DNA of 64,000 nucleotides from Vulcanimicrobiota bacterium (lineage in GTDB: Bacteria; Vulcanimicrobiota; Vulcanimicrobiia; Vulcanimicrobiales; Vulcanimicrobiaceae), in the NCBI GenBank assembly GCA_963833095.1, contig CAWHWQ010000001.1:448001-512000 (forward strand). Reading direction: 5' to 3'. The stretch's first letter is position 1; each line of letters begins with the position of its first letter. The position numbers are program-made. Positions 18,001 to 21,000 of the stretch are shown here, one piece after another.

Positions 18001-21000
18001 CAGAACCCGAACCGGCGGATGGCCGGTTCGGGCCCTGACGTAGATAGGCGATGAGCGCGAAGCAGACGATCGCTATTGCAATAAGAACGATCATCGAGTT
18101 AACGAGGGTTAATATTTACTGCTGCTGTTGCCGTTGTTGTCGTCATAGCCGCGAGACATCGAGAGTGCCTCTTTGGTGACCGACTGCAAGAACTCGTCGT
18201 TCGTGCGCGTCTGGGCCATCTTATCGAGGATGATCTCGGTGATATCTCCGGTGTTGAGAACCGACGTGGCGCGGCGAAGCATCCAGATCTTGCGCATCTC
18301 TTCGGTCGTAAGCAGCAACTCTTCGTGTCGCGTGCCCGAACGCTTGATGTCGATTGCCGGGAACACGCGCGACTCGGCGAGTTTACGCGTGAGGTTGAGC
18401 TCCATGTTGCCCGTGCCTTTGAACTCTTCGAAGATCACGTCATCCATCTTGGATCCGGTTTCGATGAGCGCCGTGGCAATGATCGTGAGCGATCCGCCTT
18501 CTTCGATTTTGCGCGCAGCGCCGAAGAAGCGTTTGGGTTTGTGGAGCGACGCGGTATCGAGACCACCCGAAAGCGTTCGGCCCGAACTCGCGACGACTTG
18601 ATTGTAGGCGCGAGCGAGGCGTGTGATCGAGTCGAGGAGGATCACGACGTCTTTGCCGAGTTCCACCAAGCGTTTTGCGCGCTCCATCGTCAGTTCGGCG
18701 ACGGCGGTGTGATTCTCGGGATGCTCGTCGAAGGTCGATGCGACGACTTCGCCGTCGACCGTGCGCTGCATATCAGTAACTTCTTCCGGCCGTTCGTCCA
18801 CGAGTAGCGCAATGATATGCGCATCGGGATGATTGATCGAAATGGAATTGGCGATGTTCTTAAGCAGCGTGGTCTTGCCGGCTTTGGGCGGCGAGACGAT
18901 CAGCGCGCGTTGACCCTTACCGATCGGGCAGAACAGATCGATGACGCGAGTCGAGAGCTGCGTCGCTCGAACCTCAAGCTTAAAGCGCTCGTTCGGATAT
19001 ATCGGCGTGCCTTTTTCGAAAAGGCGCCGGCCCTTGATCGCTTCGGGGTCGAGATCGTTGACACGATCGACGCGAATGAGGCCGTAATACTTCTCGCTCT
19101 CTTTGGGGCGGCGTACTTGGCCTTCGACCATGTCGCCGCGGCGCAGCTCGAAGCGCCGAATTTGCGACTGGCTCACGTAGATATCGTCGTTGCCGATGAT
19201 ATAACCGCCGCGTCGCAAGAAGCCGTAGCCCTCGGGAAGGACGTCGAGGATCCCGCTAGCCATCTCCATGCCCGAGCGCTGTTGCTGGGTGGCGAGGATC
19301 GCGGCGATGATCTCGTCTTTCTTCATGGTCGTCGGATTGCCGAGCGCGATTTCATTTTGCTCGGCGATCTCGACCAGTTCAGCCTTCTTCTTATCTTCGA
19401 GATCGGCTGCGGTCAAAAGCGGCGGCCCAGTTTCCGCTTGAGGAAACTGTTCGTTGTGTTGTTGAAATTGCGGGTTGAACCCGTGGCGGCGGCGCGAACG
19501 GCGGCGACGTCCGCCACCCTGCTGCCCATTGTTATTGTTGTTGGGGCGATGTTCCGTTTGCAGAGGAGTGTTCTCTCTCGTAGAGTCGTACGCATGAACA
19601 ACGCGACGCTGTCACGGGCGAGGCTGCCACGCGAGCGTCGAGTCCGAGGTACGGGGGGGATTAAACGACCACACTATACCACAGGCCGGGGAAGCCGCAA
19701 TGTGCCCCGCCTCGTCGTCGGCTCGACCAGGCGTTATCGTCAAAGCGAAGCTCTCCCGGCTAGATCCGCGCAGATTCGCTCGCCTAGTCATTAAGGCGAA
19801 AGGTTTTTTGGGCCGCTCAGGTAGGGATTGCCGCGTTCGTAAAACCTCAGGAGCCGGCGCGCGGCCGAGCTCACGCCGATTCTGCGGCTGCGCCGAATCG
19901 CTCCCACAGGCCGGTCGGGCGGATGAAGTTGCAACGTCGAATTGGTCAGAAGATTGCAGCCATCGAGCGTCCGATCGATCTCCAGCGCTTGGGACAGGCG
20001 CCCAGGCCCGCTGCAAAGGAGGCGCGGATCCTCTAGCCCACGGCGTTCACGCATCAGCGCGATGCCCTCGAGCGGTTCGAGAGCACGAATCAGCACCGCT
20101 GCCCCCTGTCCATCGGCCTCACTCGAAACGTTGACGCACCAATACCGCCCGTAAATACGGTAGACGTAGGCGTGAAACGGTGCGCCGAACATCGTGCGAT
20201 TGCGGGGACGTACGCCGCGAAAAGCGTGCGATGCCGGATCGCCGATGAGGTAGGCTTCGGTTTCAATGATGCGGCCCGCAGAGGTCCCGGCCGGGCCTAG
20301 GCGCACGAGCCGCCACCCGATGAGCGCCCGCGCCAGTGCTTGCGTCTCCTTCGGCAACTCTGGAAGAACCGACGGTCTACGCGGCGCTATGCAGTACCAA
20401 TTCCGCGCGAGCGCGCGCCTCGAGATCGTCATCGCCTCCGGTGCAGACCGCGTACGCGGCGAAACGGTTCAGCGCGCAACGCAAGCGCACGTACGGCAAT
20501 ACTAACGGCGGCGGCACATTGCGATGCTCGTTGCAATCGGCAACCAGCTCGCCGTCGGCGAGTCCAAACGACGCGCGCTCGAGGCCGCGTTCCCGCAGCA
20601 TCGCGGCGACCGCGGTCAACGCCGCGTAGCCAATCTCGCGACCTCCCAGACCCTCGAAGCGCGCGACGCGGAAGGCGACCCGCACAAGCCGCTCTCCCGC
20701 CCGCGTCGTCAGGCGAGCGTAGGCGACTCCCTCCCCGAGCCGGTCGGCGGCGAACCCTAGCTGTACCTGCACCATACCCTTATGATACCGAACGTATGTT
20801 CGTCTCGTCAACCGGGTGTGGCTCCAGCAAGCTCTGATAGAGATCGATCATCGCGTCGACCTGCCGAACCGCCGAGAAGCGGCTCGCCGCCGATTTCGCG
20901 CGACGGGCTGCCGCGGCGTCCGGCGCCGCGGGGATCTCGCGTAGGGCGTGAGCGAAGGCACCGCGATCCGGCGCGACGATGCGCGCGGCATCGCCCAGCA

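Follow-up and report, generated by a model that had tools for sequence, protein, structure and literature searches.

A LexA-boxed gene for a putatively catalytically dead RNase HI-fold protein in the Vulcanimicrobiaceae and related bacteria

The locus and its LexA operator

The window, i.e., the whole stretch of 64,000 nucleotides that we analysed, carries on its minus strand a short gene that the preliminary description had listed as unannotated and 132 aa long, which we recovered as an open reading frame of this length starting from an ATG. We call it the dead RNase HI-fold gene, after the predicted loss of catalysis in its product. The gene, its promoter and its neighbours are arranged as follows (positions in the window):

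20377-20775, minus strand: dead RNase HI-fold gene (ATG at 20775, TAG at 20377-20379; 132 aa)
20789-20802, no strand assigned: LexA (Cheo-type) box CGAAC-N4-GTTCG, CGAACATACGTTCG, in the promoter spacer
20806-20811, minus strand: -35 element TTGACG (promoter scan)
20782-20787, minus strand: -10 element TATCAT (promoter scan), 6 nt before the ATG
20554-20559, minus strand: codons of Ala73 (position of the catalytic D70, lost) and Asp74 (S71/N-cap position), from the alignments
20467-20517, minus strand: signature VPxxLxxxY[VL]xxR[CA]xLN, residues 87-103 in helix D, common to the dead groups; candidate partner-binding face
20380-20385, minus strand: C-terminal Ala-Ala codons, candidate ClpXP degron
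19791-20357, minus strand: methylpurine-DNA glycosylase (MPG) gene, directly downstream (PF02245, E 2e-58)
20780-22024, minus strand: GT4 glycosyltransferase gene, upstream; in this genome its 3' end overlaps the promoter and the box

The start of the MPG gene is uncertain (TTG at 20357 or ATG at 20432), and the dead RNase HI-fold gene and the MPG gene are probably co-transcribed. Since the -10 element lies so close to the ATG, the mRNA of the dead RNase HI-fold gene is probably leaderless in this genome. The MPG gene follows in 65 of the 69 family loci with downstream DNA, and a glycosyltransferase gene precedes in 66 of 70 family loci.

Orthologues were identified in 74 of the 81 genomes of the family (76 matches, 70 of which were examined, 69 with upstream DNA) and, counted for each of the three families of the class, in 111 of 113, 3 of 3 and 14 of 15 genomes. 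The preliminary description had reported an orthologue in 16 of 16 genomes, with a LexA box in 15, and the larger sample confirms the presence of both; its term "family-wide" holds for the family itself but understates the range, as the gene occurs throughout a class of soil bacteria and has relatives beyond the phylum. The family profile gave no match in 69 genomes of the other classes of the phylum. A wider profile gave 21 matches in 20 genomes of these classes, and the 16 that were fetched, none with a perfect box, are either active RNases HI or longer proteins that contain a degenerate domain. The genome tallies of orthologues, RVT_3-type genes and dnaE2 include the unpublished genomes G008, G019, G021, G028, G029, G051, G183, G220, G244 and G251, and no claim depends on these alone.

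The box has a sequence that we take to be the Gram-positive LexA (Cheo) box, and it is located between TTGACG and TATCAT, the sole promoter-like site found by the promoter scan in 19300-22400. It is perfect in 68 of the 69 family loci with upstream DNA (67 of 68 when G019 is left out), with one mismatch in the remaining locus, and likewise in all 16 loci fetched, out of 17 matches, from the other two families of the class, in keeping with the earlier claim of a LexA box over the promoter in nearly every genus. A TTGA[CT] element lies within 12 nt before the box in 68 of the 69 family loci and TANNNT follows it in 67, and the box keeps a fixed position between -35 and -10 across loci, i.e., the operator overlaps the sigma70-type promoter. 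The probability of meeting a perfect box by chance within 200 nt is about 0.001, a figure to be read with the proviso that kin are not independent. Over the whole genome, the palindrome shows no enrichment (13 perfect copies counted, 13.6 expected, and 8-17 for other spacers), therefore, the case for the box rests on its position. Elsewhere in this genome, three one-mismatch boxes stand before a full-length lexA gene, and perfect boxes stand before imuA-imuB-dnaE2, a radical-SAM gene and a metallo-beta-lactamase-type exonuclease gene, and none was detected up to 300 nt from recA; these gene names were read off translations, except for lexA and dnaE2, which are profile matches.

One could argue that the box serves the MPG gene and that the dead RNase HI-fold gene is a passenger, or that the box is an artefact of glycosyltransferase coding sequence, since in this genome it does lie inside the last codons of that gene. 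However, such an overlap exists in only 13 of 66 loci, and we rejected the box as a product of glycosyltransferase coding on this ground. The MPG gene directly follows in all 3 second-family loci, while in the third family it is adjacent in none of the 13 loci and the box is present in all 13. Furthermore, in G072 (93% complete, 3 contigs) the glycosyltransferase gene runs directly into the MPG gene, and the dead RNase HI-fold gene and its box are both absent. As the box is kept without an adjacent MPG gene and is lost together with the dead RNase HI-fold gene, it belongs to the latter, and the passenger reading is largely refuted, to the point of being hardly credible. One metatranscriptome run contained 7% of the words, and its contigs came from relatives, none at 95% or more. 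Taken together, the position and conservation of the operator support LexA control of the dead RNase HI-fold gene, which is thus predicted to be induced in the SOS response.

An RNase HI fold without its catalytic residues

The AlphaFold model of the protein (pLDDT 93.9) has RNase H topology, with the RNase HI of Halobacterium (4e19) as the best Foldseek match (E 2.5e-8, TM 0.70), and VIA-align places Sulfolobus 3aly at Z 14.3 with 126 aligned residues and 4e19 at Z 13.6 (for both, rmsd 2.7 over about 125 residues), so that the RNase HI fold given in the preliminary description stands. The best structural matches are RNases HI without the basic protrusion. The 132-aa protein itself has no Pfam, NCBIfam or PDB sequence match, as had also been noted for Pfam and PDB before. 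At the profile level, hhalign against the class's own RNase HI gives a probability of 93% and an E-value of 3e-7, one third-family orthologue just passes the RVT_3 (PF13456) cut-off, and the distant relatives described below carry PF13456.

None of the four catalytic acids (D10, E48, D70 and D134) is kept in this protein. E48 is replaced by G49 (G or A in the family) and D134 by R121, and D10 falls on F8, in a register uncertain by one or two residues, in a column that holds F/Y (or G) and no acid. D70 falls on Ala73 in both the profile alignment and the joint alignment, and neither flank contains a gap. The near-invariant Asp74 (64 of 67 family members) aligns with Ser71, the helix N-cap, and not with D70, which leaves no catalytic acid in place here. 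The preliminary description, according to which three of the four acids are replaced and the D70 equivalent is kept, was therefore right about E48 and D134, but its retained D70 was a one-residue slip. The D70 column is Asp in 25 of the 67 family members and in 10 of 12, 17 of 18 and 18 of 28 members of the other dead groups (the set of 67 leaves out two truncated loci and one unpublished genome, and the set of 12 one over-long ORF). No dead group retains D10 or E48. The position of His124 is Thr in this protein, and NPG, TNN, His124 and YxVK, which are invariant or nearly so in the class's 28 active enzymes, are absent from all dead groups.

Of 61 class genomes, 60 have an active RNase HI-like (RVT_3-type) gene, and in this genome an intact, box-less RNase HI is encoded at another place, C1:118463-118885. 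The 28 RVT_3-type proteins of the class, extracted by their N-terminal motif, all keep the four acids, and none of their genes has a box. In Mycobacterium smegmatis RnhA, E50Q or D72N alone is reported to abolish activity (PMC5224475). These results support a LexA-controlled, catalytically dead RNase HI-fold protein as the best reading of the gene, the loss of activity being predicted from the residues. Relatives of the protein are named "ribonuclease HI" or "reverse transcriptase-like" in spite of their missing catalytic residues, which we flag as mis-annotation.

Distant relatives, the helix-D face and the C-terminus

A profile search of 1.84 billion representatives returned 144 hits, among which seven distant proteins (121-163 aa), falling into two groups, bridge to RNase HI. 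No true fusion of the gene with MPG was found among the 144 hits, three longer ones resembling frameshifted calls, and a programmed frameshift or read-through into MPG was rejected, as the frame of the MPG gene relative to that of the dead RNase HI-fold gene varies across loci, with all three frames represented. The Armatimonadota have 12 dead-copy loci (two, plus 10 more among 30 loci fetched from 251 genomes), and these copies mostly coexist with an active gene elsewhere in the genome. No LexA box precedes any of the 12, though lexA is boxed in 5 of 5 such genomes. Q-led clamp-type tails of the QLxL type (for example QLSLI, QLSLL and QLPLL) end 6 of the 12 dead copies versus 1 of 15 short active enzymes, by a pattern looser than the published clamp consensus Q-phi-x-L-F / Q-phi-x-L-x-L (bioRxiv 10.64898/2026.05.27.728225).

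The second group, which we call the LPLW group, comprises 32 metagenome loci; one of its members is labelled Armatimonadota, and the lexA genes of the group are labelled only "bacterium". Here the gene order is lexA, a small membrane peptide and the dead RNase HI, in a LexA-boxed operon: lexA stands directly upstream on the same strand in 23 of the 32 loci (14 of 18 clusters at 90% identity), the other loci having at most 362 nt upstream (five) or no lexA in reach (four); all 16 complete lexA promoters have one-mismatch boxes; and a short membrane-peptide ORF lies between lexA and the dead RNase HI in 8 of 8 loci checked. An [LM]PLW C-terminus occurs in 28 of the 32 loci and in all 21 of a further set of proteins, from which one short row was omitted, and in a structure model it is a low-confidence region outside the fold. 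The ImuB of the window's genome has a Q-less MPLL at what is apparently the equivalent clamp-motif place. The mycobacterial ImuB clamp motif is reported as QLPLWG (PMC10421592), and the LPLW tail is without the Gln of the published clamp consensus. A quick, unrooted IQ-TREE tree separated 36 active enzymes from 59 dead proteins by a branch with SH-aLRT 99, a split that long-branch attraction may affect. The presence of the dead family in a distant lexA operon, along with the boxes before lexA and imuA-imuB-dnaE2 in this genome, supports the earlier proposal of a damage-induced pseudo-RNase H.

All dead groups share the helix-D signature, with two departures in the third family, where R is replaced by G and VP takes a variant form. 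V/L/I96, C/A100 and N/H103 were gained in all dead groups, whereas active enzymes are mostly polar at these positions, and within the family only the Cys100 column is invariant (67 of 67). By helix periodicity, residues 96, 100 and 103 would face outwards, making this side of the helix a candidate for partner binding. However, N103 could simply cap a helix and V96 could pack against a loop, in which case the patch would be structural; E. coli RNase HI has Gly at the N103 position.

The protein ends in Ala-Ala, as do 66 of 67 orthologues versus 27 of the 1251 long ORFs of the genome (2.2%), and clpX is present in the genome. A terminal Ala-Ala is reported to be the main ClpX determinant, with about five free residues needed (PMC7652416), and the SOS protein RecN to be cleared by ClpXP via its C terminus (PMC10714372), so this end is a candidate ClpXP-type degron. 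The last helix of the model extends to residue 131, a point against an accessible tail, and the last block has a pLDDT of 62. No tmRNA tag for comparison was found in this 81%-complete genome. A clamp motif by the strict pattern Q-phi-x-L-F / Q-phi-x-L-x-L is present in none of the 67 family members and none of 12 third-family members.

Possible roles and comparison with known systems

We tentatively favour, as a possibility that falls a little short of probable, an SOS adaptor that has no catalytic role, is short-lived and acts at stalled forks. An ancient duplicate of an RNase HI without basic protrusion (RVT_3 type) would have lost its metal ligands and become a stress factor acting through protein contacts. 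Upon DNA damage and cleavage of LexA, the gene would be transcribed, in this family together with MPG, and the protein would serve as an adaptor or competitor in the fork complex via its conserved helix-D face. The relatives may dock on the beta clamp by their C-terminal LPLW or QLxL tails, while this family, having lost the clamp tail, might be recruited through a partner, the first candidate being the ImuA-ImuB-DnaE2 mutasome. The Ala-Ala end would then direct the protein to ClpXP and end its action with the SOS response. Gene content lends the mutasome link weak support: of the two family genomes more than 90% complete that lack the gene, dnaE2 is missing from one (G047) and interrupted by stops in the other (G072, possibly an assembly error). 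However, G057 has the gene and no dnaE2 match, and dnaE2 is nearly universal (54 of 61 genomes), thus, their co-occurrence discriminates little. A more specific version, which is conceivable but on balance doubtful, is that the dead RNase HI, sitting on the clamp or a clamp-bound partner, changes the handling of RNA:DNA hybrids at damaged forks: it would keep the active RNase HI from R-loops or primers and pass these to the mutasome for restart, before its own removal by ClpXP. If true, RNase H action would have its own damage-inducible regulator, of which we found no description, and the protein would be an ancient SOS component in several uncultured lineages.

The main alternative, possible if unlikely, is that the dead fold itself binds RNA:DNA hybrids or primer junctions and guards them from the active RNase HI during the SOS response, for replication restart from R-loops or primers. 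Catalytically dead RNase H1 does bind hybrids (2qk9), the dead proteins are basic (median pI 9.3 vs 7.1 for the active enzymes), Arg occupies the D134 position in 66 of 67 and 16 of 18 members and, as Arg46, the N45 position in 61 of 67, and an active enzyme to guard against is encoded almost throughout the class; a clamp tail would fit as well. However, the hybrid-contacting motifs NPG, TNN and YxVK have gone from every dead group, and the LPLW group has A or I in place of the Arg at the D134 position. A different nucleic-acid activity, that of a nuclease rewired to another specificity by a shifted metal site, seems very unlikely to us. Its putative ligands E/D47, D74, D117 and D11 adjoin the old catalytic positions and are conserved in 62, 64, 62 and 45 of 67 family members, and D70 is retained in most members of the other groups, but residues 47, 74 and 117 stand at helix starts in the model, where acids serve as caps, D11 and D117 are not found in the third family, and the loss of D10 and E48 extends to every dead group.

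The strong promoter, the central operator and the putative degron would equally suit an unstable, SulA-like SOS protein that inhibits division or the initiation of replication, and so would the place of the distant LPLW-group gene after a small membrane peptide in a lexA operon; SulA itself is reported to be a dead RecA paralogue (PMC3765255). Nevertheless, the clamp-type tails indicate the fork rather than the divisome, and the genome already has a LysM membrane protein gene divergent from lexA, thus, we regard such a checkpoint role as quite unlikely. We take this LysM protein to be YneA/ChiZ-like. An accessory role for the protein in base-excision repair by the MPG glycosylase, to which the close linkage of the two genes in the first two families would point, appears highly improbable, as neither the 13 third-family loci nor the distant loci with listed neighbours have an adjacent MPG gene, and G072 retains MPG without the dead RNase HI-fold gene.

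Among known proteins, type 1 RNases H without the basic protrusion (4e19, 3aly and the N-terminal domain of Mycobacterium tuberculosis Rv2228c, 3hst; RVT_3, PF13456) share the fold and topology over about 126 residues. They differ in that the positions of D10, E48, D70, H124 and D134 are F/G, G, A, T and R in the dead protein, and that the dead groups are without NPG, TNN and YxVK and have LexA control and a terminal degron (putatively) or a clamp-type tail added. Bacillus YpdQ and Staphylococcus RnhA are likewise stand-alone RNase HI-family proteins, with no RNase H activity reported or of unknown function (PMC4419217). However, the window protein does not match PRK13907 or PRK07708, and the available part of the same source describes no LexA control or clamp motif for YpdQ or RnhA. 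In E. coli RNase HI, the RNase H domain is reported to be brought to the fork by SSB binding (PMC11253446), and in phage Rhc (RNase H-clamp) fork placement is reported to occur via a polymerase subunit (bioRxiv 10.64898/2026.10.01.755736); unlike the dead protein, both are catalytically active, and the available portions of the cited texts do not describe them as LexA-controlled. RecN and other SOS proteins cleared by ClpXP also combine an SOS box with a C-terminal degradation signal (PMC10714372, PMC7652416), but their fold is unrelated, and degradation of the dead RNase HI protein is a prediction. The searched literature, mostly open-access and without supplements, whose regulon tables could list one, yielded no LexA-controlled dead RNase HI, and no LexA paper for this class, for which the boxes described here outline an SOS regulon.

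The closest functional parallel is with SulA, ImuA and ImuB, which are reported to derive from DNA enzymes as catalytically dead paralogues, to be under LexA control and to work through contacts with other proteins (PMC3765255), with QLPLWG as the clamp-binding motif of ImuB (PMC10421592); an imuA-imuB-dnaE2 operon is also present in this genome. By the catalytic test, as read from its residues, our protein is not an RNase HI and is best placed with these SOS pseudo-enzymes. The known ones stem from RecA and Y-family polymerases, and an RNase HI-based one would be added here, whose connection to LexA takes a different gene arrangement in each of two distant lineages. With a defined operator, a defined candidate degron and, in the relatives, a defined clamp-type tail, the link that this 132-residue protein would make between the SOS response and either fork remodelling or the handling of RNA:DNA hybrids is open to direct tests.

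Neighbouring genes and a residue pair of the dead RNase HI family

Positions of the features in the window that concern us here are as follows.
19791-20432, methylpurine-DNA glycosylase gene (MPG), downstream of the dead RNase HI gene
20806-20811, -35 element in the promoter of the same dead RNase HI gene
25750-29857, a stretch of several genes, namely glycosyltransferase, peptidase and ftsH-like ones

No in-frame ATG, GTG or TTG was present for MPG in 9 of the 65 loci, comprising the window and its orthologous loci, and, measured against the gene before it, MPG occurs in each of the three reading frames across loci; one reading of these sequences is that MPG uses non-canonical starts or translational coupling. 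In most loci, the TGA stop codon of the upstream glycosyltransferase gene is the TGA within the TTGAC of the -35 element. The genes at 25750-29857 seem to be split across frames, and therefore assembly indels are suggested in this region.

In the dead RNase HI alignment, columns 32 and 125 are nearly invariably R32 and E125 in the window's family, while they are F and L in a third family of the same class, thus a salt bridge has likely been exchanged for a hydrophobic pair.

RNase HI copies in Armatimonadota and in other classes of the window's own phylum

Of the 12 Armatimonadota loci with a dead copy, 6 (L125, L127 and L131-L134) carry a GGGTAT[AG] motif at a similar place ahead of that gene. 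A G[AT]TTNN-like hexamer, recognized by eye, precedes the motif by 14 nt; we take this pair to be sigma-B/F-like. A TTAAC…TACAAA element also recurs upstream of these copies. Judging from such motifs, the Armatimonadota dead copies may be under general-stress control instead of LexA control. Clamp-like tails (QQSLGL, QINLGI and HQLPLDLD) are also found on some active Armatimonadota RNases HI (L143, L147 and L150), so the tail may be older than the loss of catalysis.

At seven loci from other classes of the phylum to which the window belongs (L231, L232, L234, L235 and L239-L241), RNase HI domains with partly or wholly lost catalytic acids are located within longer proteins, several of which continue with a SAGG start that we presume to be NUDIX-like. 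No perfect LexA box occurs at these seven loci, and their domains are a separate degenerate family.

LexA boxes and small membrane proteins

In the window's own genome, two further box-bearing genes end in clamp motifs, and their translations were read as follows.
C1:582747-583769, metallo-beta-lactamase-type exonuclease, ending in QLSLF
C4:236816-237703, radical-SAM (SplB-like) protein, ending in QLSLI

Perfect boxes are also located before or between further genes at C2:247004, C5:44908 and C1:655838, and a weak, below-cut-off second match to the LexA DNA-binding domain (C3:156610-156780) adjoins clpX. Divergent from lexA and sharing its three boxes is a LysM membrane protein gene (C1:773695-774033), whose product is a candidate division inhibitor, presumably YneA/ChiZ-like.

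In the distant LPLW group (L164-L195), a conserved short ORF of ~35-70 aa, often overlapping the lexA stop codon, separates lexA from the dead RNase HI gene, and is kept in L173 though no lexA is in reach. With its single hydrophobic stretch and the pattern …DDRxxxxxKxxL…LExP[W], it encodes a candidate SOS membrane peptide, which we assume to be of the SidA/YneA type.
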